64,000 nucleotides of DNA from Actinomycetota bacterium (GTDB lineage: Bacteria > Actinomycetota > Acidimicrobiia > IMCC26256 > VFJJ01), in contig VFJJ01000045.1 in the NCBI GenBank assembly GCA_009886115.1, positions 2,224-66,223 of the forward strand. The letters are read 5' to 3'. The position numbers and the translations under genes were made by a program. The notes beneath the pieces were generated by a model that saw only the letters and a program-made list of their open reading frames with translations, was not told the DNA's origin and did not search any database. Every line of letters begins with the position of its first letter. Within the stretch, counting starts at the first letter, position 1. Shown here in pieces: positions 4,019-64,000 of the stretch.

Positions 4019-4073
4019 GGAGCAGGTGTCCGTTCCGGAGAAGTGGTCGGTGAGCAGATGACGACGGGACGCG

Positions 4074-4742
4074 CTACTTGGCGGAGGCTTCGTAGTACGG
4101 GTTCGCGCCCGAGGCGTGGTCGGTCACGTCGATCACCCGGGTGATCTCGGGGAGCGCCGAGGTGATCGCCGCCTCGATGCCCTGGGACACCGTGACCGTT
4201 GCCATGCCACAACCCTGACAGCCGCCACCGAGGCGCACGTACGCAGTGTCGCCCTCGACGGCCACCAACGACGCCATGCCGCCGTGGCCGGCGATCGCAG
4301 GGTTGATGCGCTGGTCGAGGAGTTGCTGGATCTGCTCGGCGAGCTCGCCGGTGAGCTCGAGCGTGCCGTCGGTCCCTCCGCCTCCACCACCGCCCGAGAA
4401 CGGGTTGGGCTTGTTGGGGTTGCGCAGCGTCAGCCCGCCCTGCATGGGGTTCGACGGCACGTCGAGGACAGCGCCTTGCACCTTCGCCGCGTCGCGAGTG
4501 GCGACGATGACCGAGAGCCCACCGACATCGGTGACGATGGCATCGTCCTCGACATCGGAGATCACCTCGAAGTACATGTCGTACGTGTAGTCGGTACCCA
4601 TGGCGGTGAGGCCGCTCACCTCGAGCCGGAGGCCCAGCGTCTCGGGATCGTCCTCATCGGCTCGCAGTCGCAGCACCTTGTCGAGGGCGTCGGGCGAGAG
4701 GCTGACGAGGAGGTCGCCGGTGGTCGTCACGTCATTGCTCAT
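4074..4742 (-). CDS. NfuA-like Fe-S cluster carrier (A-type-like N-domain + Nfu C-domain)
   Basis: The C-terminal Nfu motif is GGGCQGCGMATVT (CxxC) after INPAIAGHGG. The N-terminal HesB/IscA-like fold pattern is LRLEVSG....YTYDM.F. A poly-Gly linker GGGGGGG joins the two domains. Confidence 0.8.
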   Translation of the reverse strand: MSNDVTTTGDLLVSLSPDALDKVLRLRADEDDPETLGLRLEVSGLTAMGTDYTYDMYFEVISDVEDDAIVTDVGGLSVIVATRDAAKVQGAVLDVPSNPMQGGLTLRNPNKPNPFSGGGGGGGTDGTLELTGELAEQIQQLLDQRINPAIAGHGGMASLVAVEGDTAYVRLGGGCQGCGMATVTVSQGIEAAITSALPEITRVIDVTDHASGANPYYEASAK

Positions 4743-9574: not shown

Positions 9575-9659
9575 GCCGTTCCTCCGTGGTCGCCGTGTCT
9601 GGTGCTGTCGTGGTGTCTCGTGCTGTCGCAGGCCCGCAGGCTCTCGCGGTCCCGAACGT

Positions 9660-10412
9660 CTACCCCGCTTGGTGCTTGACCGTCTCGGAGGCAACCTTGG
9701 CGGCGTCGGGGTCGAGGTAGCGCTTGAGGATCGGCATCTTGTGGGCGGGGCGGAAGTCGTCGCCGAGCTCGTAGAGCATCGGTATCCCGGTGGGGATGTT
9801 CAGCTCGGCGATGCCGGTGTCGCTGATGCCCTCGAGGTGCTTCACCAAGCCCCGCAGGGAGTTCCCGTGCGCGGCGACGATCACCGTGGCTCCGGCCTGG
9901 AGATCGGGGATGATGGCGTCGTACCAGTACGGCATCATGCGCACCACGACGTCCTTCAGGCACTCGGTTGCCGGAAGCACGCTCTGGGGGAGCATGCGAT
10001 AGCGCGGCTCGTTGCGGGGGTGGTACTTCGAGCGACGGTCCGACGGCGGCGGCGGAACGTCGTACGACCGTCGCCAGATGTTCGTCTGCTCGGGCCCGTA
10101 CTGCTCGGTCGTCTGACGCTTGTCCTTGCCGGTGAGGGCGCCGTAGTGGCGCTCGTTCAGCCGCCAGTGCCGGCGAACCGGGAGCCAGAGCTGGTCGATG
10201 CCTTCGAGTGCCAGGTTCAGCGTGCGCACGGCCCGGGTGAGCACCGACGAGTGGGCGACGTCGAAACGCAGCCCGGCCTCGGCGAGATACTGCCCGGCCC
10301 GGGCGGCTTCCTCGACGCCCGTGTCGGACAGGTCGATGTCGTGCCAGCCGGTGAACAGGTTGAGCCTGTTCCACTCGCTCTGACCGTGGCGGAGCAGCAC
10401 GAGTCGATGCAT
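9660..10412 (-). CDS. gpmA: 2,3-bisphosphoglycerate-dependent phosphoglycerate mutase
   Basis: [12 protein letters not shown] (catalytic His), [21 protein letters not shown]. Start at ATG 10412. Confidence 0.9.
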
Positions 10413-49175: not shown

Positions 49176-49248
49176 GCGCTCGTAGCTCAACGGATAGAGC
49201 ATCTGACTACGGATCAGAAGGTTGGGGGTTCGAGTCCCTCCGAGCGCG
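49176..49248 (+). tRNA. tRNA-Arg (anticodon ACG), no encoded CCA
   Basis: Acceptor GCGCTCG/CGAGCGC, D-arm GCTC-AACGGATA-GAGC, anticodon stem TCTGA/TCAGA with loop CTACGGA, T-arm GGGGG-TTCGAGT-CCCTC, discriminator G. Folded by eye. Confidence 0.9.
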
Positions 49249-49250
49249 CT
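49207..49250 (+). repeat. attL core: 44-bp direct repeat covering the tRNA-Arg anticodon loop to its 3' end
   Basis: CTACGGATCAGAAGGTTGGGGGTTCGAGTCCCTCCGAGCGCGCT is identical at 49207-49250 and 61508-61551, compared base by base. A further shared AAGTCCAGGT lies 4 nt downstream of both copies. Confidence 0.9.
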
Positions 49251-49307
49251 ACACAAGTCCAGGTCAGAGAGCTGTTGGAGGCTCTCGCTGGATGGTGTCA
49301 CACCTCT

Positions 49308-49341
49308 GTGAGAAGATTCTGAGAAGATCCCGTCTTCTCAC
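49308..49341 (+). promoter_or_regulatory. candidate integrase arm-type binding sites (P' arm): GAGAAGA motif twice direct and once inverted
   Basis: GTGAGAAGATTCTGAGAAGATCCCGTCTTCTCAC. The first 25 nt recur at 61359-61383 with one mismatch. Confidence 0.45.
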
Positions 49342-49359
49342 GACTCGGGGGTGGCGCTG

Positions 49360-50514
49360 ATGCCCAAGTTCCAGGGCGTGTACCAGGACCGCCGCGGGGG
49401 CTGGTACTTCAAGGCGTCGTCGCACAAGGACCCGCTCACCGGTCGCTGGCACCAGATCACCCGGCGCGGGTTCATCACGGCCGCCGACGCTTCGCGGGCC
49501 CGTGCCTCGTTCGTGGCCGAGTTGGAGGCGTCGCCACCTGCGGCCGCGCTCGCGGGCTTGACGGTCGCCGAGCTCGTCGACGCGTACCTCGATGACGCCT
49601 CGTCTGGTGGCCTCCTCTCGGCCAAGACCCTGTTCGACTACCGGCACTACGCCACCCACTACATCGGCCCGTACCTCGGGACGAAGCTGGTGCGTGATCT
49701 CGACGCCGAGACGATCGCCGCATGGCAGCGAGCGCTCACCAAGGGCGGCGGGGCCAAGACCGGCAAGAGCCTCTCGGCCAACACCGTCCGCATCGCCCGG
49801 GCGCCGCTGGCCGGGGCGCTCAAGTACGCGGTGAGCCGGGGGATCCTCAAGGCGAACCCGATGGTGTCGATCCCCCCGCCGCGCATTCCGAAGAAGATCC
49901 CGCAGCACTGGTCGCCCGAGCAGGCCCGGGAGTTCTTGGCCCTGCACGAGGGGGACCGGCTGTTCCCGGTGTGGGCGTTCCTGCTGGGATCGGGCCTGCG
50001 CATCGGCGAGCTGGTGTCGCTCCGCTGGCCCAACGTCGAGCTCGACCGCCGGCTCGTCCGCGTGCACGAGTTCGCCACCGTGCTCGGCTACGAGGTGGTG
50101 CGATCGGGCGGGAAGTCCCGAGATGCTGTCCGCACGGTCGACGTCGACGAGCACCTGGTGCGGGTGCTCCGCCAGCACCGCAAGACCCAAGCGGCTGAGG
50201 CGCTCGCGACCGCCGACTACGAGGCCAGCGACTACGTGTTCACGCGAGCTGGCGGCGGGCCGTATCACCCGCAGACGCTCTCGAAGGTTCTCGTTCGAGC
50301 GAGCGTCGCGGCGGGCCTTCCCCGGTTGACGGCCCACGGCCTGCGCCACACGAGCGCCACCCTGATGTTGGCGAGCGGAGTCGCACCCAAGGTCGCGGCC
50401 GAGCGCCTCGGCCACGCCGACACCACCCTGTTCTCGAACCTCTACAGCCACGTCACGCCCACCATGCAACGCGAAGCCGCCGAACGCATCGGCGACACGC
50501 TGTTCGGGGTCTGA
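49360..50514 (+). CDS. tyrosine-type site-specific integrase
   Basis: C-terminal catalytic region LRIGELVSLRW (Arg), HGLRHTSATLML (H-x-x-R), LGHADTTLFSNLYSHV (His/Tyr). ATG at 49360 (MPKFQGVY); the track start is the GTG at 49351. Confidence 0.92.
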   Translation: MPKFQGVYQDRRGGWYFKASSHKDPLTGRWHQITRRGFITAADASRARASFVAELEASPPAAALAGLTVAELVDAYLDDASSGGLLSAKTLFDYRHYATHYIGPYLGTKLVRDLDAETIAAWQRALTKGGGAKTGKSLSANTVRIARAPLAGALKYAVSRGILKANPMVSIPPPRIPKKIPQHWSPEQAREFLALHEGDRLFPVWAFLLGSGLRIGELVSLRWPNVELDRRLVRVHEFATVLGYEVVRSGGKSRDAVRTVDVDEHLVRVLRQHRKTQAAEALATADYEASDYVFTRAGGGPYHPQTLSKVLVRASVAAGLPRLTAHGLRHTSATLMLASGVAPKVAAERLGHADTTLFSNLYSHVTPTMQREAAERIGDTLFGV

Positions 50515-50516
50515 CG

Positions 50517-51671
50517 ATGGCTGCCCAACGAGTCCGCGTCGAGGCCCCGGTTGCGCTGTACGAATGGGCGATCGAACGGTCGCGCGTCGATCGTGAGGGC
50601 TTGGCGCGCCGATTCCCAAAGCTGAGGGACTGGTTGGCGGGCGAGGCCCCTCCGACCCTCAAGCAGCTCGAAGCGTTCGCTCGGGCGACGCACACGCCGA
50701 TCGGATTCTTCTTCCTCACCGAGCCGCCGGTCGAGCCCATGCCGATACCGGACTTCCGCACGATCGGCGACCGCACCGTCGCGCGGCCGAGCGCCGACCT
50801 GCTCGACACCATCTACCAGTGCCAGCAACGCCAGGAGTGGTTCCACGACTACGCCCAGGCAAACCGCTTCGACCCGGTGCCCTTCGTTGCGTCGTGCACG
50901 CTCGACTCCACGGTTGCCGAAGCTGCGGCGCATATGCGAGAGGTGTTGTCGTTCAGCGTCGATGAGCGTGGCTCGAGCTGGGGTGACGCATTCGCTCGGC
51001 TTCGTGAGCACGCCGAGGAAGTTGGCGTGCTCGTGATGGTCAACGGTGTCGTCGGGTCGAACACCCATCGCAAGCTCGACCCCGATGAGTTCCGAGGCTT
51101 CGCGTTGGTCGATCCCTTGGCCCCCTTGGTATTCGTCAACGGGGCCGACACGCGGGCCGCGCAGATCTTCACCCTGGCCCACGAGCTGGCCCACCTCTGG
51201 CTCGGCGAGAGTGCGCTCTCCGACGTGGCTCTCGATGTGGAGAGCACCAACGCGACTGAACGGTGGTGCAACCAGGTCGCGGCCGAGCTTCTGGTTCCGC
51301 TCGTCGATCTGCGCGACCAGTTCGACACTGGACGAGACCTGACCGAGGAGCTCGACCGGCTGGCTCGGCGTTTCCGCGCCAGCACGCTCGTCGTCCTTCG
51401 CCGCGTGCAGGAAGCGGGCTACCTCAGTTGGCCGGCCTACCGAGCGGCGTACACGGCCGAGCGCCAACGAGTGCTCGGCCTGATGGGTGACGGTGGCAGC
51501 GGCGGGAACTTCTACAACACCCAGCCAGTCCGGGTGAGCAAGCTCTTCGCCCGATCCGTGATCGCCAGCACCCTCGAAGGCCACACGCTCTACCGCGACG
51601 CGCTCGACATGCTCGGGTTCAAGAAGATCTCGACCTTCAACGAGCTGGCCGGCCGTCTCGGTGTCGCGTGA
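50517..51671 (+). CDS. ImmA/IrrE-family zinc metallopeptidase with an N-terminal HTH-like domain
   Basis: HExxH in FTLAHELAHLWLGES. The N-terminal region is ..LKQLEAFARATHTPIGFFFL, an XRE-like pattern. It starts 3 nt after the integrase stop, and its own stop overlaps the next gene (51668-51671). Confidence 0.8.
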   Translation: MAAQRVRVEAPVALYEWAIERSRVDREGLARRFPKLRDWLAGEAPPTLKQLEAFARATHTPIGFFFLTEPPVEPMPIPDFRTIGDRTVARPSADLLDTIYQCQQRQEWFHDYAQANRFDPVPFVASCTLDSTVAEAAAHMREVLSFSVDERGSSWGDAFARLREHAEEVGVLVMVNGVVGSNTHRKLDPDEFRGFALVDPLAPLVFVNGADTRAAQIFTLAHELAHLWLGESALSDVALDVESTNATERWCNQVAAELLVPLVDLRDQFDTGRDLTEELDRLARRFRASTLVVLRRVQEAGYLSWPAYRAAYTAERQRVLGLMGDGGSGGNFYNTQPVRVSKLFARSVIASTLEGHTLYRDALDMLGFKKISTFNELAGRLGVA

Positions 51672-52165
51672 TGGCGTACCTGCTCGATGCGAACGTGTTC
51701 ATCCAGGCCAAGAACCTCCATTACGGCTTCGACTTCTGCCCAGCGTTCTGGGACTGGATCGAGCAGGAGAACGCCGGCGGTCGCGTGCTCAGCATCGACC
51801 GGGTGCGCGACGAGCTGATCGGTGGCGACGACGAGCTGGCCGCCTGGGCGGCGGACCGGGCCGGGTTCTTCGTCGAGGCCGACCCCGCGATCATCGCGAG
51901 CCTGCAGGCAGTCAGCCGGTGGGCGAACGGTGCCCGCTACGAGCCGGCGGCGATCGCGACCTTTCTCCAGGTCGCCGACTATTACCTCGTTGCCAGCGCG
52001 CTGGCCCATGAGCACGTGGTCGTCACCCACGAGGTCGTCGCTCACTCCACCAAGAAGATCAAGATCCCGAACGTCTGCATCGCCCTCGGCGTCGGCTGCA
52101 TCACGCCCTACGAGATGCTCCGCAGAGAGCGTGCCCGGTTCGTCCTGGGTCCGACGGCGGCTTGA
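51668..52165 (+). CDS. DUF4411-family PIN-like protein
   Basis: The N-terminus YLLDANVFIQAKNLHYGFDFCPAFWDWI matches the DUF4411 signature from memory. There is a 4-nt overlap with the ImmA gene. Confidence 0.7.
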   Translation: MMAYLLDANVFIQAKNLHYGFDFCPAFWDWIEQENAGGRVLSIDRVRDELIGGDDELAAWAADRAGFFVEADPAIIASLQAVSRWANGARYEPAAIATFLQVADYYLVASALAHEHVVVTHEVVAHSTKKIKIPNVCIALGVGCITPYEMLRRERARFVLGPTAA

Positions 52166-52393
52166 TCACGCGCCGCGCGGGGACTGGCAAGGTTCGATCC
52201 GATGCTCATCGATCCACTGCACGAGCTCACCGGGGTCGAAGCGTACGAAGTGACCTACCTTCACGTACGGGATCCGCTTCTCGGCCACGAGCCGCCGCAC
52301 GTGCCGCAACGAGACGCCCAGGTGCTCAGCCGCGGACGACATGTCGATGAGCGTCGGCAGAGATGCGGCCGCAGCGACCGGCTGAACCAACAT
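52166..52393 (-). CDS. excisionase-family helix-turn-helix DNA-binding protein
   Basis: AAEHLGVSLRHVRRLVAEKRIPYVKVGHFVRFDPGELVQWI is the typical Xis/MerR-like winged HTH. Its stop directly abuts the DUF4411 stop. Confidence 0.8.
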   Translation of the reverse strand: MLVQPVAAAASLPTLIDMSSAAEHLGVSLRHVRRLVAEKRIPYVKVGHFVRFDPGELVQWIDEHRIEPCQSPRGA

Positions 52394-52742
52394 GTCCTAC
52401 AAGGGACACTCCGTGGCTGCCGATGTGACAAGGAACGACCAGTAGGTGAGGCCAGCTTGGTGGCGAAGCCGCTGGCGAGGACCGGTAGGTGGGCCATACT
52501 GTCGCCGTGCGGCGACGGCGCAGGCGACCATCGGCACCACTGCCGACCACGTTTTCACGGCCACGGAACGTGGCGGCTGGAGCCCGACCGTCATCTGGAG
52601 GTCCGCAGGACCTGCAGATGTGTCTCGACGTCTTCGGTGGGAGCATTAGGTGTGGCGTTCATCACGTGCCGTGGGATCGGATGGCCGTTAGCGCTGTCTT
52701 CGGTGACTAGTTGCTTCTGAGTGCGAGATAGAGGGACGTGAC

Positions 52743-54293
52743 GTGAAGAGTGATGACCTGGCCGAGGTTCGGCGGACCTTGTGGAAGGCGGCTGACGAGC
52801 TCCGGGCGAACTCCACGCTCACACCGGCGGATTACCGGAGCCCGGTGCTCGGGTTGATCTTCCTCGCCTACGCCGAGCACCGCTTCGAGGCCGTCCGGGC
52901 CGACGTCGAGGCCGGTGCCACCGCTCGCAACCCAGTGTCGCCCGACAACTACCGCGCCCGATCGGTGCTGTTCGTACCCGACGAGGCACGGCTGTCGGGC
53001 CTCGTCGACCTCCCCGAGGGCGAGAACCTCGGAGCCGCGGTCGACGCCGCCATGAAGGCCGTCGAGGCCGCCAACCCCGAGCTCCGCGACGTTCTGCCGC
53101 GCGGCTATCAGCGCCTCGAGCGCTCGACGCTCACGGAGTTACTCCGGCTTTTCTCCCCGCTGCCCCGCACCCTGTCGGGCGACGCCTTCGGGTTGATCTA
53201 CGAGGACTTCCTGTCCAACTTCGCCATGGCCGAGGGTCGCCTGGGGGGAGAGTTCTTCACCCCGTACTCCATCGTCCGTCTCATCGTGGAGATCATCGAG
53301 CCGTACCACGGCAAGGTCTATGACCCGGCGTGCGGGTCGGGCGGCATGTTCGTGCAGTGCGCCAAGTTCGTGGAGCGCCACGCCGGCTCGGCCACCCAGG
53401 AGCTGTCCGTCTACGGCCAAGAGCAGAAGGAGGTCACCGTCCCGCTGGCCAAGATGAACCTCGCCCTCCACGGTCTGTCGGGCGACATCCGCCTGGCCAA
53501 CAGCTACTACGAGAGTCTCCACGATGCCGTCGGCCGGTTCGACTTCGTCATGGCCAACCCGCCGTTCAACGTGAACGGTGTCGACAAGGACAAGCTCGCC
53601 GGCGATCCGCGGTTCCCGTTCGGCCTCCCCAGGACCGACAACGGCAACTACCTCTGGATCCAGCAGTTCTACGCCGCCTTGAACGACGCCGGCCGCGCCG
53701 GCTTCGTCATGGCCAACTCGGCGGGCGACGCCGGCCACTCCGAGAAGGAGATCCGTCGCAAGCTCGTCGAGTCCGGCGCCGTCGACGTCATGGTGGCCAT
53801 CGGGACCAATTTCTTCTACACCGTCACCCTCCCGGTGACCCTCTGGCTCCTCGACAAGGGCAAGGCCGGCACGGATCGCGAGGACACGGTGCTGTTCATC
53901 GACGCCCGCCACACGTACCGCCAGATCGACCGCGCCCACCGCGACTTCCTTCCGGAGCAGATCGAGCTGCTGGCCAACGTCGTCCGTCTCTACCGTGGCG
54001 AGGACGTCACGACCGTCGATGGCAGCATCGCCCTGTTGAAGGAGCGGTTCCCCGACGGGACCTACGCCGACGTTCCGGGCTTCTGCAAAGTGGCCACTCG
54101 GGCCGAGATCGAGGCGCAAGGATGGAGCCTCAACCCCGGGCGCTACACCGGCACCGCAGCGGCCGACGCCGACGACGAGGACTTCACCGAGAAGCTCGAG
54201 AGCCTCTACGAGGAGTTCACGCGTCTCAGCAACGAAGCCGACACCCTCCGCGCCAAGGTCGATGCTGCCATCACAGGGGTCTTGAGCGAATGA
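52743..54293 (+). CDS. hsdM: type I restriction-modification system DNA methyltransferase subunit
   Basis: N-terminal HsdM domain LWKAADELR......YR.PVLGLIFL, AdoMet motif VYDPACGSGGMF, catalytic FVMANPPFN. GTG start at 52743. Confidence 0.93.
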   Translation: MKSDDLAEVRRTLWKAADELRANSTLTPADYRSPVLGLIFLAYAEHRFEAVRADVEAGATARNPVSPDNYRARSVLFVPDEARLSGLVDLPEGENLGAAVDAAMKAVEAANPELRDVLPRGYQRLERSTLTELLRLFSPLPRTLSGDAFGLIYEDFLSNFAMAEGRLGGEFFTPYSIVRLIVEIIEPYHGKVYDPACGSGGMFVQCAKFVERHAGSATQELSVYGQEQKEVTVPLAKMNLALHGLSGDIRLANSYYESLHDAVGRFDFVMANPPFNVNGVDKDKLAGDPRFPFGLPRTDNGNYLWIQQFYAALNDAGRAGFVMANSAGDAGHSEKEIRRKLVESGAVDVMVAIGTNFFYTVTLPVTLWLLDKGKAGTDREDTVLFIDARHTYRQIDRAHRDFLPEQIELLANVVRLYRGEDVTTVDGSIALLKERFPDGTYADVPGFCKVATRAEIEAQGWSLNPGRYTGTAAADADDEDFTEKLESLYEEFTRLSNEADTLRAKVDAAITGVLSE

Positions 54294-55573
54294 GCGAGTG
54301 GCGGGACGTCGTGCTCGGCGACCTGTGCGAGCGAGTCACGGTAGGGCACGTAGGGAGGATGTCCGATCGGTACGTAGATGATGGAGTGCCCTTCCTCCGA
54401 TCTCAGAACATCAAGCCGTTCGTGATCGATCGCAACGGCATGCTTCGGGTAGACGAGGACTTCCATCGGAAGCTCGCCAAGTCGAGGCTCGCCGCCGGAG
54501 ACGTAGTCGTCGTTCGCACGGGCTATCCGGGAACCGCAGCCGTGGTCCCATCCGACCTCGATGGCTCGAACTGCGCGGACCTTGTGGTCATCACCCCAGG
54601 CGAAGATCTCAACCCACACCTACTCGCCGCAGTCTTCAACTCGAGTTGGGGGCGTTCGGCAGTTGGCGGCCACCTGGTCGGTGCGGCTCAACAGCACTTC
54701 AACATCGGCTCAGCCAAGATGCTGCGCCTCCGTCTCCCCTCAAGGCACGAGCAGGACCAGATCGCCGTCGTTCTGTGCGCCCTCCACGATCTGATCGAGA
54801 ACAATCGGCGGCGGGTTGAGGTGCTGGAGGAGATGGCGCGGGCCATCTACCGGGAGTGGTTCGTCCATTTCCGGTACCCGGGCCACGAGGACGTCCCCCT
54901 CGTCGACTCCCCCCTCGGCCCCATCCCCGACGGCTGGCAGATTCGGCGCCTCGATGAGTTCGCGTCGCTCGTTCGTGGACGGTCGTACCGCAAGCACGAA
55001 CTCGTCGACGTCGGTGGTCGCCCCTTCGTGAACCTGAAGTGCATGATGCGCGGGGGAGGCTTTCGGCGGGACGGCCTGAAGCGCTACGACGGGAAGTTCA
55101 CCGAAGCACAGCTTGTGAACCACGGCGATGTCGTACTTGCGGTTACCGACCTCACCCAAGGGCGGGAGATCCTGGCTCGGGCAACACTCGTGCCGCGACT
55201 ACCCGAGCCGGGCGTGATCTCGCTCGACGTAGCGCGCATCGTCCCCGACGAGCCAGCAGATCGACTGTGGTTGTTCGCAGTACTCCGATGGTCGGACTTC
55301 GCCGACCGCGTCAAGGAGTTCGCCAACGGCTCGACGGTCCTCCACCTTTCTCCGGACCATGTGGCGGCCGGCCAGGTCCTATGGCCGCCGGGAGACCTGC
55401 GAGCCTCACTTGCCGCGGCGCTCGACGCGGCGCTTGCGCTCGTGGATGAGCTGCTCGACGGGTCCGATCAACTCACCGGGCTCCGAGACCTCCTCCTTCC
55501 AAAGCTCGTGACCGGGCAGATCGATGTTTCGCATCTAGACCTCGATGCGTTGACCGAGGCGGCGGTGGGGTGA
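54290..55573 (+). CDS. hsdS: type I restriction-modification system specificity subunit
   Basis: Two target-recognition halves separated by a conserved helix (LIENNRRRVEVLEEMARAIYREWFVHFRYPG) and ending with LRDLLLPKLVTGQIDV. ATGA overlap with hsdM. Confidence 0.9.
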   Translation: MSEWRDVVLGDLCERVTVGHVGRMSDRYVDDGVPFLRSQNIKPFVIDRNGMLRVDEDFHRKLAKSRLAAGDVVVVRTGYPGTAAVVPSDLDGSNCADLVVITPGEDLNPHLLAAVFNSSWGRSAVGGHLVGAAQQHFNIGSAKMLRLRLPSRHEQDQIAVVLCALHDLIENNRRRVEVLEEMARAIYREWFVHFRYPGHEDVPLVDSPLGPIPDGWQIRRLDEFASLVRGRSYRKHELVDVGGRPFVNLKCMMRGGGFRRDGLKRYDGKFTEAQLVNHGDVVLAVTDLTQGREILARATLVPRLPEPGVISLDVARIVPDEPADRLWLFAVLRWSDFADRVKEFANGSTVLHLSPDHVAAGQVLWPPGDLRASLAAALDAALALVDELLDGSDQLTGLRDLLLPKLVTGQIDVSHLDLDALTEAAVG

Positions 55574-58500
55574 ACCCACCGGGGCCGTATTCGGAGTCGG
55601 GGCTGGTCGAGGAGCCGGCGCTCGAACTGCTCGCAGAACTCGGCTGGGAGGTCGTCAACGCCTGGAAGGAGTCGTTCGGCCCGGCGGGCACGCTCGGACG
55701 CGACTCGATGCACGAGGTCGTCCTCGTCCACCGTCTCCGAGATGCGATCCGGGTCCTGAACCCCTCCGTTCCGGACCAGATCCGCGAGGAGGGGCTCCAG
55801 GCCGTCACGAAGACGCGGTCGGCGATGGATCGGGTGCGCGCGAACCGCGAGGTGCACGCTTTGCTGCGGGACGGCTACCGCGCCGAGTGGACCGACGATC
55901 AGGGCGGCAAGGCCTACGCCACCGTCCGTTTCGTCGACTTCTCGGACTCGACGAACAACGACTGGCTGGCCGCGTCGCAGGTGTGGTTCGCGAGCGACAT
56001 GTACCGCCGCCGCACCGATGTGGTCCTGTTCGTGAACGGTATCCCGCTGGTGCTGGCCGAGTTCAAGGAGCCGAACCGGAAGGCCAAGGCGGCGTTCGAC
56101 GAGAACATCACCGACTACCGCGACACCATTCCCGACCTGTTCGTCCCCAACGGATTCGTGATCTGTTCCAATGGATCCGAAGCGAAGGTAGGCCCCACCT
56201 TCGCGTCATGGGAGTACTTCGGGGACTGGAAGGTCATCGACGCTGACGGCACCCGTGGTGTCGTCGCGTTGGAGACGGCCATCCAGGGCACCTGCGCCCA
56301 TGACCACCTGCTCGACCTCGTCGAGAACTTCACCGCGTTCATCGAGCGGCCGGGCGGGCTGATCAAGGTCGTGGCTCGCAACCACCAGTTCCTCGGCGTG
56401 AACGCGGCGATCGAGAACCTGCACCGGGTGCGGGCCGCCGGCGAGAAGCGCCTCGGCGTGTTCTGGCACACCCAGGGGTCGGGCAAGAGCCTGTCGATGC
56501 TGTGGTTCACCCAGAAGGTGCTGAGGCGAGTCCCGGGTGCCTGGACGTTCGTCATGGTGACCGATCGCACCGAGCTCGACATCCAGCTCCACGGCGAGTT
56601 CGCCGACGCCGGCGCGATCCCCGCCGAAGCCACCGTGCACGCAACGTCGACCGCTCACCTCCGCGAGCTGCTAGCCGCCGACCATCGCTACGTGTTCACG
56701 CTGATCCACAAGTTCCGCATCGACACCCGGGCCGGGGAGACGACCATGCCGGTGCTGTCGGACCGGTCCGACGTGATCGTGATCACCGATGAAGCTCACC
56801 GCAGCCAGTACGACACGTTAGCGCTGAATATGCGCCAGGCGCTCCCGAACGCTGCGTTTATGGGCTTCACCGGCACGCCGCTCATGTCGGGCGAGGAACT
56901 GACCCGCCAGCAGTTCGGTGACTACGTCACGGTCTACAACTTCCGCGACGCCATCGAGGACGGCTCAACCGTCCCGCTCTACTACGACAACCGGACCCCG
57001 GAGCTCCAACTCGTCAACGAGGACTTCTCCGAGGAACTGACCGCCCTGCTGGAGCAGGCCGAGCTCGACGAGGACGCCGAGGGTCAGCTCGCCCGCCGGT
57101 TCGGTCGGGAGTACACCCTCCTCACCCGCCCCGAGCGCCTGCGCACCATCGCCCGGGACCTAGTGGCGCACTTCGTGGGCCGTGGCTTTACCGGCAAGGC
57201 CATGTACGTCGGGGTCGACAAAGCGGCCGCGGTTCGCATGTACGGCTACGTGCAGGAGGCCTGGGCCGAGCACCGGGCCGAGCTCCAAGCCGCACACGAC
57301 GCCCTCCCGGAGCTGGAGCGGCCATGGCTGGCCAGCCGGCTGGCCCTGATGGACTCCACCGACATGGCGGTGGTCGTGTCACAGGGCCAGAACGAGATCG
57401 CCCAACTCGACGCCAAGGGCCTCGACATCCGCCCGCACCGCAAGCGGATGAACGACGAGGACCTGGCCGAGAGGTTCAAGGCCGCCGACGACCCGTTGCG
57501 GATCGTCTTCGTGTGTGCCATGTGGATGACCGGATTCGACGCCCCGAGCGTGTCGACGATCTACCTCGACCGCCCGATGCGCAACCACACGTTGATGCAG
57601 ACCATCGCCCGAGCGAACCGGGTGTTCCCCGAGAAGGACAACGGCCTGATCGTCGACTACATCGGCGTGTTCCGGAACCTCGAGGCCGCGCTGGCCATCT
57701 ACGGCTCGGCCAACGCCGAGGCCGGCGTGGACACCCCGATCCAACCCGTCGACGCACTTGTCGTCGCCCTCGACGAGCAGATCGAGGTCACCGTCGAGCT
57801 GTGCGCGGCGGCCGGTGTCGACCTTGCGGCGTTGCGAGACGCCACCGGGTTCGAGCACATCGCATTGCGTGACGCTGCCGTCGAGGCGCTGCTGGCCGAT
57901 GACGATCAGCGCGTGGCGTTCCTGGCCGCGGCTCGCCAGGTCCGCAAGCTGTTCAAGGCCCTCCTCCCCGACCCAGCCGCTGCCGCCCAGATGCGGACCG
58001 TGGCCGCGATCCGGGTGCTGGCCGAGCGCCTCCTCGACCTGGCCCGGCCCCCAGCCGCCGACCTCGACGAGCTCGCCGACGCCGTCGACGAATTGCTCGA
58101 CCGATCCGTCGGTGCGGAGGAGTACGTGATCCGCGCCGCAGCCGAGGGGAGCGAGCCCGAGGCGCTCATCGACCTGTCCCGGATCGACTTCGATGCCCTT
58201 GCCGCTCGTTTCGCCGGCCGCAAGCGCGCTGAGACCGATCGGTTGGCGGCCCTGCTCAAGCAACGGGCGGTCGCTGCCGCGACCCGCAATCCGACCCGCT
58301 ACGACCTCGTCGAGCGGATCGAGCAGCTCATCGCGGAGTACAACGCAGGCAGCCTCAACATCGACGAGTACCTCCGGCGCCTGATCGAGCTGTCGCAGTC
58401 ACTGACCGACGAAGAGCAACGAGCGGTCCTCGAGGGCCTCACCGAGGCCGAGCTGGCGATCTTCGACCTGCTCACCAAGCCCGACCCGGTGCTCAGCGAC

Positions 58501-59403
58501 ACCGAACGCACGGTGGTGAAGGCGAGCGCCAAACGCCTCCTCGCCCATCTCCACGACAAGCTCGTCCTGGACTGGCGACGCAAGGCGGCGACGACGGCCG
58601 ACGTGCGAGTGGCGATCCGCCGACTTCTCGATGAGGACCTGCCGGCAGATCCGTACCCGCCGGAGGTGTTCGACACCAAGGTCCAGGCCGTGTTCGACCA
58701 CATCACCTCGGCCTACGGCGACGACGGACGCAGCGTGTACGAGGGCATCTCGGTCGCACCTGCCAGGCCGGCGGGCGGCGTGGGGACGCTTCCGGCCGGG
58801 GCGCTCACCACGTCGGCCCTCACCGAGGAGGTCGTCGAGAAACTCCGTACCGACGCCGAGTTCGTCGCCCTCGTCGCTGAGAAGCTCGGGCTGGTCGGCA
58901 AGCCCGAGCTGCGGACCATCGAGGAGTTGATCGCCAACGACGAGGACTACGCCGTCGAGTTCAAGTCCACCGCCCGTTGGGACCTCCGCGAGAACCAACC
59001 GAGCAAGGCAATCGAGGACGCCATCGTCAAGACCGTGGCCGGCTTCCTCAACACCGACGGCGGGACGCTACTGATCGGGATCGGACCCGACCGCTCAGTC
59101 GTGGGACTGGGCCACGACTACGAACGGGTAAAGCCCAAGAACGGCGACGGCTTCGTCAACTGGCTGACCACCCACCTCGTCCACGCCCTGGGCCACCCGC
59201 CCGTCACCCGGGCCCGCGCCCGCATCGCGATTCACGCGGGCGCAGAGGTCTGCCGTGTCGACGTGGCCGCCTCGCCCGTCCCGGTGCGGGCGAAGACCAG
59301 CAAGGAGGACGGCGTCTTCTACGTCCGGCTCAACAACTCGACGAGAGCGCTGCCGGAGGACGAGGCCGAGGCTTACTGCTCCGAGCACTGGGCTGAACCA
59401 TGA
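55570..59403 (+). CDS. hsdR: type I restriction endonuclease subunit R fused to a C-terminal AlbA_2/Schlafen-like domain
   Basis: N-terminus SESGLVEEPALELLAELGW, helicase motifs WHTQGSGKS (motif I), VIVITDEAHRSQY (DEAH), FMGFTGTP, MQTIARANR. The C-terminal roughly 160 aa, AVEFKST.....I.KTVAGFLNTDGGTLLIGIG.D.SVVGL....FYVRLNNSTRAL, match the AlbA_2 pattern. At 1277 aa the protein is about 200 aa longer than the typical HsdR length I remember. GTGA overlap with hsdS. Confidence 0.88.
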   Translation: MNPPGPYSESGLVEEPALELLAELGWEVVNAWKESFGPAGTLGRDSMHEVVLVHRLRDAIRVLNPSVPDQIREEGLQAVTKTRSAMDRVRANREVHALLRDGYRAEWTDDQGGKAYATVRFVDFSDSTNNDWLAASQVWFASDMYRRRTDVVLFVNGIPLVLAEFKEPNRKAKAAFDENITDYRDTIPDLFVPNGFVICSNGSEAKVGPTFASWEYFGDWKVIDADGTRGVVALETAIQGTCAHDHLLDLVENFTAFIERPGGLIKVVARNHQFLGVNAAIENLHRVRAAGEKRLGVFWHTQGSGKSLSMLWFTQKVLRRVPGAWTFVMVTDRTELDIQLHGEFADAGAIPAEATVHATSTAHLRELLAADHRYVFTLIHKFRIDTRAGETTMPVLSDRSDVIVITDEAHRSQYDTLALNMRQALPNAAFMGFTGTPLMSGEELTRQQFGDYVTVYNFRDAIEDGSTVPLYYDNRTPELQLVNEDFSEELTALLEQAELDEDAEGQLARRFGREYTLLTRPERLRTIARDLVAHFVGRGFTGKAMYVGVDKAAAVRMYGYVQEAWAEHRAELQAAHDALPELERPWLASRLALMDSTDMAVVVSQGQNEIAQLDAKGLDIRPHRKRMNDEDLAERFKAADDPLRIVFVCAMWMTGFDAPSVSTIYLDRPMRNHTLMQTIARANRVFPEKDNGLIVDYIGVFRNLEAALAIYGSANAEAGVDTPIQPVDALVVALDEQIEVTVELCAAAGVDLAALRDATGFEHIALRDAAVEALLADDDQRVAFLAAARQVRKLFKALLPDPAAAAQMRTVAAIRVLAERLLDLARPPAADLDELADAVDELLDRSVGAEEYVIRAAAEGSEPEALIDLSRIDFDALAARFAGRKRAETDRLAALLKQRAVAAATRNPTRYDLVERIEQLIAEYNAGSLNIDEYLRRLIELSQSLTDEEQRAVLEGLTEAELAIFDLLTKPDPVLSDTERTVVKASAKRLLAHLHDKLVLDWRRKAATTADVRVAIRRLLDEDLPADPYPPEVFDTKVQAVFDHITSAYGDDGRSVYEGISVAPARPAGGVGTLPAGALTTSALTEEVVEKLRTDAEFVALVAEKLGLVGKPELRTIEELIANDEDYAVEFKSTARWDLRENQPSKAIEDAIVKTVAGFLNTDGGTLLIGIGPDRSVVGLGHDYERVKPKNGDGFVNWLTTHLVHALGHPPVTRARARIAIHAGAEVCRVDVAASPVPVRAKTSKEDGVFYVRLNNSTRALPEDEAEAYCSEHWAEP

Positions 59404-60071
59404 CGACGCCGCAATTCGGACTGCTGTTCCACTTCACCCACGTCGACAACCTGCCGGCGATCCTCGAAGCGGGCGCACTGTTGAGCGACACGATCGTGGA
59501 GGGACACGGGCTCCTGACGAACGAGGCGGGCGACCCGGCGATCAAGCAGAGGCGCCGCGGTCAGCCGGTGACCTGCTCGCGCGGAGGTTGCGTCGGGGAC
59601 TACGTGCCCTTCTACTTCGCGGCACGCTCGCCGATGATGTACGTCCTCTGGAGGGGGAGCGTGCCGTCGTTCACCGGCGACCACCGTGATCTCGTCTACT
59701 TCGTGGGCCACGTCGATCAGCTGGTGGGCGCGCCGGTGGACTTCGCAATCAGCGATCGGAACGCGGCGAAGGCGTATGCCGCGTTCAGCGACGACCCTCG
59801 CGTGCTCGGTGACCTGGCGGCCCCGGTACCCCAGTCGACGTTCATCGACTGGTCGTTGATGAAGGAGGCAATGTGGAAGGACACGCCGGACGATCCCGAG
59901 CGAATGGAGCGACGGATGGCCGAGTTCCTCGTGCACGGCCAGGTGCCCCTGGAGCTGCTCACCGGAGTAGCCGCGCGGTCGGACGACCGGAAGGCTATGG
60001 TCGAACGCCTGTTCGTGGAGTCGGGGTGTGGGCTGCAGGTGGTCGTCCGGCCCGACTGGTACTACTCGTAG
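59400..60071 (+). CDS. darT: DarT, DNA ADP-ribosyltransferase toxin (DUF4433)
   Basis: LFHFTHVDNLPAIL, GDYVPFYFAARSPMMY, FAISDRNA, RMAEFLVHGQVP (catalytic Glu context), C-terminal RPDWYY. The ATG overlaps the hsdR stop (ATGA at 59400-59403). Confidence 0.88.
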   Translation: MTTPQFGLLFHFTHVDNLPAILEAGALLSDTIVEGHGLLTNEAGDPAIKQRRRGQPVTCSRGGCVGDYVPFYFAARSPMMYVLWRGSVPSFTGDHRDLVYFVGHVDQLVGAPVDFAISDRNAAKAYAAFSDDPRVLGDLAAPVPQSTFIDWSLMKEAMWKDTPDDPERMERRMAEFLVHGQVPLELLTGVAARSDDRKAMVERLFVESGCGLQVVVRPDWYYS

Positions 60072-60084
60072 GATCGGAGTTGAG

Positions 60085-61185
60085 ATGATCCAGGAAGCGC
60101 ACGGGAACCTGCTCGACGCCAAGGCGGACGCCTTGGTCAACACCGTCAACACAGTAGGGGTCATGGGCAAGGGGATCGCCCTGCAGTTCAAGCGCGCATT
60201 CCCCGAGAACTACAAGGCCTACAAGCGCGCCTGCGACCAGGGGGCCGTCGAGCTCGGCCAGATGTTCATCTGGGATGCCGGCGCACTCGCGACCGATGGC
60301 CCGCGGTACATCATCAACTTCCCGACCAAGAAGCACTGGCGGTCGAAGTCGAAGCTGTCCGACATCCGTTCCGGACTCGACGACCTTGTCCGCCAGCTCA
60401 AGGACCTGTCGATCAGCAGCGTCGCCGTTCCGCCGCTGGGCTGCGGCCACGGTGGGCTTCGTTGGGAGGACGTGCGCCCGGTCATCGAGCGCGCCTTCGA
60501 CCAGGTCACCGACGTGCAGGTCCTCCTCTACCCGCCGGAGGGTGCACCCGCATCCGTCGACCAAGCCGTTCGCACCGACCGGCCCAAGATGACCTACGGC
60601 CGAGCGGCTGTGGTCGCCGTCATGGAGCGCTATCTCCCCTTCGCAGTCGACGTCACAGCCGTCGACGTCCAGAAGCTGATGTACTTCATGCAGGAGGCAG
60701 GCGAGCCGCTCAAGCTCGACTTCGCAAAGGGCAGGTACGGCCCGTACGCCGACAACCTTCGGCATGTGCTCCAGGGGATGGAGGGCCACTACATCCGAGG
60801 GACCGGGGATGGCTCGGCGAAGGCACTGGACTCGATCCCGTTCGAGATACTCGACGGTGCGTCCGCGGAGGCGGCCGCTGTGCTCGAAGCGCGCGTTGGC
60901 TCCAACGCCCACCTCGAGGTTGTCGCTCAGCTCATCGAGGGATTCGAGTCGACCTACGGACTCGAACTGCTCGCCACCGTGCACTGGGCATCCTTGCGTG
61001 ACGACGACGAGCACCGCCGGGCGGAGCCGCTAAGGCTCGATCAGGCCGAGCGCGTCGTCGGTTCCTGGAACCGGCGCAAGGAGCGCCTGTTCACGCCGAC
61101 GCACATCGCCAAGGCCTACGAGCGACTCCACGGCCAGGGATGGCTCGATCCACCCGTGCCCACCGGGTTGCTCACCGGCTCCTGA
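60085..61185 (+). CDS. darG: DarG, macrodomain DNA ADP-ribosyl glycohydrolase antitoxin
   Basis: N-terminal macrodomain GNLLDAKADALVNTVNTVGVMGKGIALQFK....Y, VPPLGCGHGGL, then a C-terminal DarT-binding-type domain. Start at ATG 60085 within track ORF 60028..61185. Confidence 0.88.
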   Translation: MIQEAHGNLLDAKADALVNTVNTVGVMGKGIALQFKRAFPENYKAYKRACDQGAVELGQMFIWDAGALATDGPRYIINFPTKKHWRSKSKLSDIRSGLDDLVRQLKDLSISSVAVPPLGCGHGGLRWEDVRPVIERAFDQVTDVQVLLYPPEGAPASVDQAVRTDRPKMTYGRAAVVAVMERYLPFAVDVTAVDVQKLMYFMQEAGEPLKLDFAKGRYGPYADNLRHVLQGMEGHYIRGTGDGSAKALDSIPFEILDGASAEAAAVLEARVGSNAHLEVVAQLIEGFESTYGLELLATVHWASLRDDDEHRRAEPLRLDQAERVVGSWNRRKERLFTPTHIAKAYERLHGQGWLDPPVPTGLLTGS

Positions 61186-61358
61186 CGCGATCTCTCGATG
61201 CCGTCGACGAGATCTGACATGAGCACGAACGCCGGAAGGAAGGACCTCCTTCGTGCGGCGCAGGGACTGTGAACTGAGTCTGGACCAGGCAGCTCACCCG
61301 GCTTCTTGGTCGACGTGTCCCGGAGCCCGATTGGCTGGCGCGGCACGGCACTGTCCCC

Positions 61359-61383
61359 GTGAGAAGATGCTGAGAAGATCCCG
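61359..61383 (+). promoter_or_regulatory. candidate integrase arm-type binding sites (P arm)
   Basis: GTGAGAAGATGCTGAGAAGATCCC matches 49308-49332 at 24 of 25 nt. It lies about 125 nt inside attR. Confidence 0.45.
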
Positions 61384-61507
61384 GCGGCAATCCGGGTAGA
61401 TGCCGGGTAGCGCCGGTCGCTCACCCGAGCGCATCGCCCCCGCTCAGGGGCACCATCAGGCCATCGCGGGCACGCCTGGTCAACCCCGGTCACCACCCAT
61501 CCGCCAC

Positions 61508-61551
61508 CTACGGATCAGAAGGTTGGGGGTTCGAGTCCCTCCGAGCGCGCT
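61508..61551 (+). repeat. attR core: second copy of the 44-bp tRNA-Arg 3' segment
   Basis: Identical to 49207-49250. Confidence 0.9.
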
Positions 61552-61673
61552 GAAGAAGTCCAGGTGGGAGTGTTGTTGGTCCGTTCCCCTGGGCGTCTGG
61601 GAGTCCGTTCTGCATCCTGGTGAGATCCAAAGTTCCGCAGAAGCGCTGCTGAGCGGATCTCACGGGAGGTCGG

Positions 61674-62078
61674 GTGCCCAGGTTCGCGGCGGGCAGCGAG
61701 ACAGCACCGTCGCTCTCCCACAGGTCACCGAGCCTGCCGACCCTCCGATGACATCCGGAACGATCGGATTGGAGATGCGCCAGAGGCCGGCATGCTCGCG
61801 AACCTCGACAGGATACGAACTCGGTGAATCGCCGGGTGGCGCCTCAGGCCGCCAAGACGCTGTTCGACCACCGGCACTACGTCACCCACTCCATTGGCCC
61901 ACACATCTCGGGGCGAAATCCTGCGCGACCTCGACGCCATCGCCTCGTGGCAGCGGGTGCTTGCGCCCCGTTCGGCCACGCCGACGCGACGCTCCTGTCG
62001 ACCCTCTACAGCCGCGTCACCCCGACTATGCGGCGAGAAGCCGCCGATCGCATCGGCCACGCGCTGTTCGGAGGCTGA
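61674..62078 (+). pseudogene. decayed tyrosine-integrase gene (frameshifts plus a large internal deletion), paralogous to 49360..50514
   Basis: Nucleotide similarity to the intact gene was read by eye. GTGCCCAGGTTC parallels ATGCCCAAGTTC. GCCAAGACGCTGTTCGACCACCGGCACTAC parallels GCCAAGACCCTGTTCGACTACCGGCACTAC. The 3' end ...GGCCACGCCGAC...CTCTACAGCC.CGTCAC.CC.AC.ATGC..CG.GAAGCCGCCGA.CGCATCGGC..CACGCTGTTCGG.G..TGA is retained, but the whole catalytic middle is missing. Confidence 0.8.
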
Positions 62079-62139
62079 GTATCAGCGACGCAGCTCGATT
62101 CATGGTTGCAGATATTGCAGTCGGTGGTACTCTTCGGCT

Positions 62140-62523
62140 GTGTCCGAGTCAGCCCTGACCACCCTCTCCGCCGAGAACCGGTCGCAGCGGGCGGTCGCTC
62201 GTCAGCTCGCCGCACAGGTAGACGACGGCTCGGATCTGGGGCACACGCTCCGGTTGGTGCTCGAGGACGTTGCCAGCGGGAAATCGGTTGTCATCCTCCG
62301 TCCGACGCAGGAGGTCACGCCGACCGAGGCGGCTCGTGTGCTCGGGGTGACCCGCCAGTTCGTCGATCGTCTTTGTGGTGAGGGCGTGCTTGCCTTTCGC
62401 CGGCTGCCCGGCAGCCGTCATCGCAGGATCCTCGTAGCCGACGTGCTCGCCATTGCGGCTGAGCGTGATCGGCGTCGTGAGGGTGCCGCCGCCATCCGAT
62501 CGGCGCTCGACGAACCCTCGTGA
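62140..62523 (+). CDS. helix-turn-helix antitoxin-like protein
   Basis: EVTPTEAARVLGVTRQFVDRLCGEGVLAFRRLPGSRHRRI (excisionase-type HTH). I chose the GTG at 62140 after an AT-richer stretch; the start is uncertain. The stop overlaps the PIN start (GTGA at 62520-62523). Confidence 0.6.
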   Translation: MSESALTTLSAENRSQRAVARQLAAQVDDGSDLGHTLRLVLEDVASGKSVVILRPTQEVTPTEAARVLGVTRQFVDRLCGEGVLAFRRLPGSRHRRILVADVLAIAAERDRRREGAAAIRSALDEPS

Positions 62524-62785
62524 AGGAACGTCGGCGCGATCGCGTCTTCGTCGACGCCAACGAGCTGTTCCCGTTTGCGGTGATGGACGTCGTGCTCGCC
62601 TTGGCCGAGGACCTGGTGATCAACTTCATCTGGTCCGAGGAGCTCCTCGACGAGTGGGAGCGCGTCATCGTTCGTGAGGGCAAGCGCACGGCCGAAAGCG
62701 CCCGGTCCGTGGTTCAGGCCGTTCGGTCCTACTTCGGCTCCGGCCGCATCGACCCGGCTGCGTATCGGGACCAAGTTGCTCGCAC
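62520..62785 (+). pseudogene. PIN-domain toxin gene, 3'-truncated
   Basis: The N-terminus RVFVDANELFPFAVMDVVLALAE.....IWSEELLDEWERV is PIN-like. After about 88 codons the reading frame runs into a 67-nt fragment homologous to the ImmA gene and then into Arg/Pro-rich nonsense. Confidence 0.6.
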
Positions 62786-62852
62786 TACCAGTGCCAGCAA
62801 CGCCAGGAGTGGTTCCACGATTACGCCCAGGCCAACCGCTTCGACCCGGTGC
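62786..62852 (+). repeat. 67-nt fragment of an ImmA/IrrE gene (65 of 67 nt identical to 50814-50880)
   Basis: TACCAGTGCCAGCAACGCCAGGAGTGGTTCCACGA(T/C)TACGCCCAGGC(C/A)AACCGCTTCGACCCGGTGC, compared by eye. Confidence 0.85.
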
Positions 62853-63269
62853 ACGACGCGCCCTCGACCGAGCCGACCACCGCATCGGCCAGCTCGTCGC
62901 CGACGGCAATCGCCGTGCCGAGCGGCTGCCGGCCTGGCGGCGCTGGCAGGACCAGTTCTCGGACGCTGCCGATCGGCTGCGGAGCATCGACGAGCGGATC
63001 GCCCGGACCGAGATGGGTCAAGGCGTTGGGCCCGACGGGTCCGCCACGCCGGGGCAGATGTCGGGGTCGATCTCGGCCCATAGGCCGCACCCGTCACGCC
63101 GCTCTCGTACTCTTGGCGCACCAACCCGAACGCCGGTGGGGAAGCACATCGTGGACTGGTCCACCCGACGGCCGAGGACTGCTCGGCTGGAAGTGCCTCG
63201 GCACCCGGGCGCTGTTCGTGAGCGCGGTCGACCTCAACCTGGGGGAAGCGCCACCGGCTGGAGACCAAG

Positions 63270-63617
63270 ATGGCGCTCCCTGAGACCGACGTGGCTCGCG
63301 TTCGCCGGTGGGTCGACGCTCGCAACGAACGCCTTCCCGAACGAGCTGTCGGCCAGATCCGCTACGAGATGGACGTCGACCCGCGGGCGATCACCATCCT
63401 GGAGTGCCGGCCGCCGTGGCGTGAGGACTTCGGGCCTGAGTGAACTCGGTTCCCCGTCGCCCGCCTTCGGTACACGAAGGTGCGGCGGGAGTGGGAGATC
63501 TACGGGCGGGATCGGAACCTCAAGTTCCGTGCCTACGACCTCGTCCCGCCCACGCCGAACGTCGAGACGCTGCTGGCGGAGATCGACGCCGACCCGACGT
63601 GCATCTTCTGGGGCTGA
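63270..63617 (+). pseudogene. DUF3024-family gene interrupted by an in-frame TGA at 63441-63443
   Basis: MALPETDVARVRRWVDARNE...ITILECRPPWREDFGPE-TGA-TRFPVARLRYTKVRREWEIYGRDRNLKFRAYDLVPPTPNVETLLAEIDADPTCIFWG stays in one frame. As I remember the family, the TGA sits where homologues have Trp (GPEW). Confidence 0.65.
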
Positions 63618-63808
63618 CCGGGGAGCGGGTTGGCTTCCGGACGGGTGCGGGCTCGAGTCGACAGAGCCGCTCGGTTCGCTTCATCGCCGACCACAGTCAG
63701 CGACCCGGGAGTCGAAGCCGGAGCATGATGAGACCTCGAAGTCACACAAATCTATAGGTACAGACATCTGTGGCGTTTGAAACTCAAGTTTCGATGTAGG
63801 ATTAGCGC

Positions 63809-64000
63809 GTGCCCGCCCACCGTCGTGACCTCCGCCGCCGCTTGTTCGGGCTCGCTGCGGATCAAGGCGGCTACTTCACGGCGGCGCAGGCCAAGGAGTT
63901 CGGGTACTCCTACCAAGCGCAGGCCCACCACGTGCGTGCCGGGAACTGGCTGCGCATCGACCGGGGCATCTTCCGCCTGGCCGAGTGGCTCCCGGGGCTC
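63809..64000 (+). CDS. AbiEi-family (type IV TA antitoxin / transcriptional regulator) N-terminal part; the 3' end lies outside the window
   Basis: VPAHRRDLRRRLFGLAADQGGYFTAAQAKEFGYSYQAQAHHVRAGNWLRIDRGIFRLAEW matches the AbiEi_4 N-terminal pattern. It is preceded by a distinctly AT-richer 70-nt stretch. Confidence 0.7.
   Translation, partial: MPAHRRDLRRRLFGLAADQGGYFTAAQAKEFGYSYQAQAHHVRAGNWLRIDRGIFRLAEWLPGL

Follow-up and report, generated by a model that had tools for sequence, protein, structure and literature searches.

A prokaryotic Schlafen domain at the C terminus of the type I restriction subunit HsdR in an actinobacterial genomic island

The HsdR-Slfn protein and its C-terminal domain

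Within a 64,000-nt stretch of DNA from an Actinomycetota bacterium (contig VFJJ01000045.1 of assembly GCA_009886115.1, forward-strand positions 2,224 to 66,223; hereafter the window), a type I restriction–modification (R-M) operon encodes a restriction subunit, HsdR, that carries a C-terminal extension. The gene, hsdR-Slfn, occupies positions 55570–59403 of the + strand and reads as 1277 amino acids (aa) in one frame. Judged by its sequence and predicted fold, the extension, or tail, is a prokaryotic Schlafen (pSlfn) domain of the nuclease type with the RNase catalytic residues in place. An earlier reading of the DNA letters (the original prediction) had described 58740–59403 as a linker followed by a domain, and this interval, the open reading frame (ORF), its coordinates and the residues cited were verified. 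The parts of the protein are listed below.

55570–58704, + strand: HsdR body, aa 1–1045, comprising a PD-(D/E)xK nuclease, a superfamily 2 (SF2) motor and a C-terminal helical domain (Pfam, TIGR00348, PADLOC, motifs)
58705–58809, + strand: variable linker, aa 1046–1080 (modelled portion, aa 1056–1073, predicted disordered; 54% mean identity among homologues)
58810–58935, + strand: conserved helical segment preceding the Schlafen domain, aa 1081–1122 (AlphaFold2 helices and homologue alignment)
58942–59352, + strand: Schlafen/AlbA_2 domain, aa 1125–1261 (Pfam PF04326, Foldseek fold match, conservation)
58942–58965, + strand: Ex4ExK motif, E1125, E1130 and K1132 (E70, E75 and K77 in tail numbering)
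59056–59058, + strand: D1163 within NTDGG, a candidate third acidic position

The HsdR portion is complete and apparently functional. Pfam matched HSDR_N (aa 7–210), SWI2_SNF2/ResIII (270–500), T1R_D3 (629–697) and T1RH-like_C (720–1045) in the 1277-aa protein, and the NCBIfam HsdR profile TIGR00348 scored 463 bits relative to a cut-off of 284.55. The PD-(D/E)xK nuclease motif (EFK at aa 164), the Walker A motif (GSGKS at 303) and the SF2 motif (DEAH at 407) are all kept. The family profile, the nuclease, the motor motifs and the adjoining hsdM and hsdS genes together identify a type I R subunit. The PADLOC model REase_I spans aa 13–1037, and no PADLOC model touched the tail region in a scan of the protein; since REase_I ends at aa 1037, the R subunit is full-length without the tail, which is purely an addition to it.

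Pfam SLFN_AlbA_2 (PF04326) matched aa 1125–1261 with E = 2e-13 and 51.2 bits, relative to a gathering score of 25.3, and covered profile positions 1–117 of 118. Sequence matches to solved Schlafen structures were marginal, and a search by fold was required. An AlphaFold2 model of the tail, built on a 38-sequence alignment, reached a mean predicted local distance difference test score (pLDDT) of 87. In this model, tail residues 1–18 (HsdR aa 1056–1073) have pLDDT below 50, and three helices (tail residues 26–39, 41–50 and 62–67, equivalent to aa 1081–1094, 1096–1105 and 1117–1122) lead into an alpha/beta domain. When the model was compared with the PDB using Foldseek, the best 30 matches were all of the Schlafen/AlbA_2 fold (E from 1e-7 to 1e-2) and included DIP2311, SLFN13, SAMD9, SLFN14, SLFN5, SLFN12 and SLFN11. 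The AlbA_2 extension that the original prediction had proposed is thus upheld by the PF04326 profile, and the fold search agrees. HMMER searches of the PDB aligned the tail with the catalytic C-lobe (second lobe) of SLFN12 and SLFN5, not with the N-lobe. The first two helices are restricted to HsdR fusions; in relatives of other architecture, the alignment starts no earlier than about tail residue 55–62.

The tail motif NDE-DYAV-EFK corresponds to E1125-x4-E1130-F-K1132. Across the 38 aligned tails, both glutamates are invariant and K1132 is at least 90% conserved. The pattern E-x4-E-x-K likewise holds without exception in 52 diverse tail relatives, and of the 120 best full-length homologues at least 116 have it. 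Among the full-length homologues, the acidic residue of N-x-(D/E)-G-G is mostly retained as either D or E. Mean identity across homologues is 73.7% for the Schlafen domain and 76.5% for HSDR_N, both far above the 54% of the linker, and by this measure the Schlafen domain is under purifying selection comparable to that on the HsdR nuclease domain.

Distribution of the fusion and partners of the tail

The best 120 full-length homologues (74–100% identity, 1199–1306 aa) include proteins from Streptomyces, Micromonospora and Frankia isolates, and all 120 carry both PF04326 and the HsdR domains. In NCBI and UniRef, such fusions are named simply 'HsdR family type I site-specific deoxyribonuclease'. 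A scan of one genome per species yielded 74 loci, which with few exceptions carry an Actinomycetota label, most often Acidimicrobiia. HsdR body and tail form a single uninterrupted ORF of 1270–1480 codons in about 38 of these. The remaining loci are contig-end fragments or frameshifted copies with the HsdR body in another frame, mainly from long-read metagenome-assembled genomes (MAGs). Where related loci have enough upstream sequence, the hsdM-hsdS order ahead of the fusion is retained. A frameshift or assembly error joining two separate genes, a check raised in the original prediction, is hardly credible: database entries for the tail are often short (about 200 aa), some of them from long contigs, but the 120 homologues and the roughly 38 intact ORFs exclude such a join. 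The short proteins of about 200 aa were also considered as a separate family of stand-alone tail genes and rejected as such, being contig-end fragments or frameshifted copies.

Beyond this clade, a more distant HsdR-Slfn fragment was found in an alphaproteobacterial MAG, and the tail type also occurs on a different HsdR subfamily (P0175). An exhaustive search of representatives with the tail returned 4999 matches at E ≤ 1e-3, 2343 of them at E ≤ 1e-10. The tail matched no phage genomes by tblastn. To survey fusion partners, we then ran Pfam on the closest 52 representatives with a length of 350 aa or more, with the following results.

HsdR: 8 of the 52
Eco57I/MmeI-type methyltransferase-restriction proteins: 5 of the 52
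GmrSD_N (DUF262): 3 of the 52
nSTAND: 2 of the 52
BrxL: 1 of the 52
Macro domain: 1 of the 52
DUF4011/AAA_11 helicase: 1 of the 52

Given that HsdR, Eco57I/MmeI-type, GmrSD_N and BrxL proteins all appear in this survey, this Schlafen subtype is, by its domain architectures, repeatedly attached to DNA-restriction proteins. At about 40% identity, the tail also resembles a DUF262-Slfn protein encoded by a Sinorhizobium plasmid. In one relative (P0152), this subtype lies N-terminal to a DUF4011/AAA_11 superfamily 1 (SF1)-type helicase, an arrangement nearer to the architecture of SLFN11.

A proposed RNase effector role and its alternatives

Prokaryotic Schlafens are tRNA-cleaving antiphage effectors found in 55 domain compositions, and a DUF262-Slfn fusion among them is active (Taboada et al., Nat Microbiol 2026, PMC13056530). 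Ex4(E/D)xK is the catalytic motif of SLFN11 and is conserved in antiphage pSlfns (PMC13056530). In the Cash system, tRNA cleavage is activated by cA4; more than half of defence-linked Schlafens adjoin R-M or other nucleases, direct fusions with R-M methyltransferases exist, and the way in which R-M-linked Schlafens become activated is described as still to be defined (PMC13462974). The single-lobe domains of SLFN-pAgo dimerise and so mimic the two-lobed mammalian enzyme, with tRNA cleavage licensed by recognition of a DNA target; the same study also reports a type I S subunit to which a Schlafen-ATPase module is fused (bioRxiv 10.64898/2026.05.29.728809). In SLFN11, the helicase domain's binding to single-stranded DNA (ssDNA) turns on the tRNase, as summarised in PMC13056530. 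PrrC is kept latent by a type I enzyme and is switched on by a phage anti-restriction factor (PMC1484252).

The tail keeps the Ex4ExK motif, and characterised prokaryotic Schlafens act as effectors with RNase activity (PMC13056530, PMC13462974); the tail is therefore more likely an effector than a passive sensor. With modest confidence, and by analogy with these systems, we lean towards the tail being an RNase effector, most likely a tRNase, that is kept latent under the control of the type I complex. The complex would serve as sensor and regulator, with the Schlafen domain held as the latent effector on its flexible linker.

The R2M2S1 complex of type I systems holds two HsdR subunits. Each complex would therefore present two single-lobe Schlafen domains, which could pair. 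A change in the state of the complex might bring together or free the two domains, yielding a two-lobed active clamp. Candidate triggers are engagement or translocation on unmodified DNA, collision or stalling, and blockage by a phage anti-restriction protein. Foreign DNA would be the trigger by analogy with SLFN-pAgo and SLFN11 and anti-restriction blockage by analogy with PrrC (PMC1484252), and sequence cannot decide between them. Cleavage of tRNA would then halt translation, adding an abortive second line of defence for cases in which cutting the DNA is not enough. In this mechanism, HsdR-Slfn would be a covalent counterpart of EcoprrI-PrrC and an architectural analogue of the helicase-coupled SLFN11.

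A stronger version of this proposal, which we regard as a tentative possibility, sees in HsdR-Slfn one polypeptide that would either 'restrict or abort'. Here the state of the complex, whether stalled or colliding translocation on foreign DNA or capture by a phage anti-restriction DNA mimic, would gate dimerisation of the tails into a tRNase. The protein would be at once a covalent, guard-type equivalent of EcoprrI-PrrC and a bacterial counterpart of SLFN11, itself activated by DNA, and the same logic would extend to the type IIG, GmrSD and BrxL fusions of this Schlafen subtype.

Several points weigh against the effector proposal. It is by analogy that RNA, not DNA, is taken as the substrate, and that dimerisation and an activating signal are proposed. 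The similarity of the tail to solved Schlafens is weak in sequence (E = 0.002–0.1 in PDB searches with the tail alone and with the 38-sequence profile), and the third acidic position, D1163 in NTDGG, varies in the wider subfamily of 52 relatives. Moreover, some mammalian Schlafens and SAMD9-type AlbA_2 domains chiefly bind nucleic acid.

One alternative is that of the original prediction, which had suggested an additional nucleic-acid sensor. As a non-catalytic binding or sensing module, the tail would aid recognition of DNA or RNA structures, or control of translocation, without cutting RNA. PDB structure titles point to DNA or RNA binding by the AlbA_2 domains in SAMD9 and SLFN5, and several mammalian Schlafens are without catalytic residues according to PMC13462974. 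We nevertheless consider a purely binding role unlikely. Ex4ExK is invariant in the clade and in the wider subfamily, which would be unexpected of a pure binding module, and the prokaryotic Schlafen domains tested so far act as nucleases (PMC13056530, PMC13462974, bioRxiv 10.64898/2026.05.29.728809). The domain call of the original prediction stands, whereas its sensor role gives way, in light of the invariant motif, the likeness to the C-lobe and the RNase activity of characterised pSlfns, to the more likely effector.

The tail could also be an auxiliary DNA nuclease that acts, for example, on ssDNA or on structures made by translocation, and that would extend restriction without any shutdown of translation. 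Fusion of the tail subtype to DNA-acting enzymes of several restriction classes is consistent with such a role, and PMC13462974 offers the speculation that Schlafens linked to R-M systems may detect structures that arise when DNA is cut. Nevertheless, the Schlafen nucleases characterised in the literature cited here cut RNA, mainly tRNA, and HsdR has its own intact PD-(D/E)xK DNA nuclease, which makes a second DNA nuclease improbable.

Relative to known systems, the effector proposal has four points of comparison. The first are the pSlfn tRNases, above all EcoSlfn7, a DUF262-Slfn fusion (PMC13056530), with which the tail shares a single-lobe Schlafen nuclease domain, the Ex4(E/D)xK motif, fusion to an accessory or putative sensor domain and a defence neighbourhood (hsdM, hsdS, darT and darG on the same island). 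Here, however, the partner is a full HsdR, with PD-(D/E)xK nuclease and SF2 translocase, inside a multisubunit R2M2S1 complex, and the protein is known from sequence. The EcoprrI-PrrC pair (type Ic; PMC1484252) likewise couples a type I R-M system physically to an RNase or RNase-like backup able to halt translation. PrrC, in contrast, stands as a protein of its own and combines an ABC-ATPase domain with a nuclease domain of unrelated type, whereas the domain here is of Schlafen type and covalently fused, and its activation by anti-restriction remains hypothetical. Pfam, NCBIfam and PADLOC searches gave no match on the tail besides AlbA_2, and so neither the ABC-ATPase N-domain nor the C-terminal nuclease domain of the PrrC/RloC anticodon nucleases; the likeness to PrrC is purely one of function.

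Mammalian group III Schlafens (SLFN11, SLFN13 and SLFN14) also combine an Ex4ExK Schlafen-fold nuclease with a helicase-type ATPase in one polypeptide. The tail differs from these, whose N-terminal nuclease domain has two lobes, in having one C-lobe-like lobe, and the motor is an N-terminal SF2 enzyme in HsdR-Slfn as opposed to a C-terminal SF1 enzyme in SLFN11; sequence similarity is marginal. HsdR-Slfn is thus not a member of this group, and its likeness to SLFN11 is a convergent pairing of domains, not orthology. Finally, SLFN-pAgo, the 'Schlatpase'-S subunit and the Schlafen-methyltransferase fusions (bioRxiv 10.64898/2026.05.29.728809; PMC13462974 cluster 3) resemble HsdR-Slfn in that Schlafen effectors are swapped among DNA-sensing defence proteins, R-M systems included. 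Those fusions have a GHKL ATPase or join S or M subunits, whereas the tail has no GHKL domain and lies on the R subunit.

In the main texts on prokaryotic Schlafens from 2025–26 cited here, an HsdR-Slfn fusion is neither named nor tested, in line with the original prediction, in which the fusion was not known to be characterised. The combination is thus uncharacterised, while Schlafen antiphage effectors as such are already known from that work. If HsdR does gate a tRNase, many actinobacterial type I systems would be two-in-one immune enzymes that couple DNA restriction to translation shutdown, and the recurrence of this Schlafen subtype on several classes of restriction protein would be accounted for. 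The fusion would then also offer a tractable system for the activation of Schlafen nucleases by DNA sensing, the question that the 2026 papers left for R-M-linked Schlafens. HsdR-Slfn is a good experimental handle on the gating of Schlafen nucleases by restriction enzymes, and annotation should flag the extra Schlafen domain instead of absorbing it into 'HsdR'.

The DarTG genes and the surrounding island

The cassette that contains hsdR-Slfn is, from its genes and terminal repeats, a mobile 12.3-kb island integrated at tRNA-Arg(ACG), spanning window positions 49176–61579. Its other features are as follows.

49176–49249, + strand: tRNA-Arg(ACG), with its 3′ part from 49207 forming the core of attL (ARAGORN; Rfam tRNA, 69 bits)
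49351–50514, + strand: tyrosine integrase of the island (Pfam Phage_integrase and Arm-DNA-bind_4)
50517–51671, + strand: IrrE/ImmA-type M78 peptidase, a likely regulator of capP/RmrA-like type (Pfam Peptidase_M78; PADLOC capP and RmrA matches)
52743–54293, + strand: hsdM (Pfam HsdM_N and N6_Mtase, E = 4e-82)
54290–55573, + strand: hsdS (the ORF that ends at 55573 has a Methylase_S match; its start is inferred from where it overlaps the hsdM stop)
59400–60071, + strand: darT, ssDNA ADP-ribosyltransferase toxin (Pfam DarT, E = 2e-55; NCBIfam equivalog, 209 bits relative to 150)
60085–61185, + strand: darG, macrodomain antitoxin (NCBIfam DarG equivalog, 442 bits relative to 250; PADLOC DarG)
61508–61551, + strand: attR, which repeats 44 nt of the tRNA-Arg 3′ part exactly and closes the island (direct repeat D3)

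The two genes downstream of hsdR-Slfn form a DarTG system, since both equivalog profiles exceed their cut-offs and the genes are adjacent. The original prediction correctly placed the fusion immediately before darT: the hsdR stop and the darT start share four nucleotides (ATGA, 59400–59403). It also suggested that the tail could serve as an interface to DarT or DarG, that is, as a docking or regulatory surface. The overlap, which recurs in an overlapping hsdR-darT arrangement in L001, L077–L079 and L082, would suit such a role. The co-occurrence survey does not bear it out. At least 1 kb of downstream sequence is available at 65 of the 74 loci, and with DarT and DarG of the window as queries, DarTG was found behind the fusion only at L001, which is the closest relative in the species-level scan (80% tail identity). 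The three nearest metagenomic relatives examined are 86–87% identical; overlapping darT-darG genes are present in two of these (P0273 and P0272), and unrelated genes in the third (P0275, 86%). Genes downstream of the fusion are heterogeneous across loci. Pfam found no recurrent partner among the genes directly following the fusion in nine other loci, where the matches were a PD-(D/E)xK protein, helix-turn-helix proteins, DUF3039 and a weak match of antitoxin type, the other genes having no match at all. Related tails also occur on unrelated restriction proteins without a DarTG match (one relative has a Macro domain).

DarTG is, moreover, inserted beside ordinary type I systems as well, a known pattern (Jankevicius et al. 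2016, PMC5179494). As in the operons described there, darT and darG run in the direction of the type I R-M operon and are coupled to it in translation; nothing is specific to the present case except that DarTG here is limited to one HsdR-Slfn sublineage. Judged by its distribution, DarTG is a recent, facultative insertion behind hsdR in that sublineage, and the tail, which is much older than this insertion, does not depend on DarTG. With DarTG at one of 65 loci and in two of the three nearest relatives, the interface role is unsupported and, in our view, very improbable. Under the RNase effector proposal, DarTG would act as a separate, facultative third layer of defence.

The relatives with DarTG differ in the genes around it. 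In L077 (87% identical), the hsdMSR(Slfn)-darTG cluster is flanked by two 384-aa Fic genes (3493–4647 and 14576–15730), and darG is followed by a 167-aa DUF6933 gene. L001 has a 167-aa ORF in the same position, and the window has no 167-aa gene at this position after darG. In L082, a second and longer DarT-domain gene (317 aa, 9002–9955) directly follows darT-darG.

The limits of the island are marked by direct repeat D3 (49207–49278 and 61508–61579), the first 44 nt of which are exact (attL, 49207–49250; attR, 61508–61551). An arm-like repeat, D9, with the sequence GTGAGAAGAT(T/G)CTGAGAAGATCCCG, lies near both island ends, at 49308 and 61359. The M78 peptidase encoded beside the integrase is a possible regulator of the island or of its defence genes. 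Between the M78 gene and hsdM lie two small ORFs (51668–52165 and 52202–52720) without a family match.

Elsewhere in the window, ARAGORN called an 89-nt tRNA-Val(CAC) at 8854–8942; it lies below the Rfam tRNA gathering score and is probably a false positive or degenerate. Directly past attR, positions 61580–64000 hold an apparently decayed second element in tandem, which extends beyond the end of the window. This element contains segments 82–97% identical to the island integrase (61851–61907 and 61972–62078) and to the IrrE-like gene (62785–62852), as well as an ORF with an HTH_17 domain (61894–62523).

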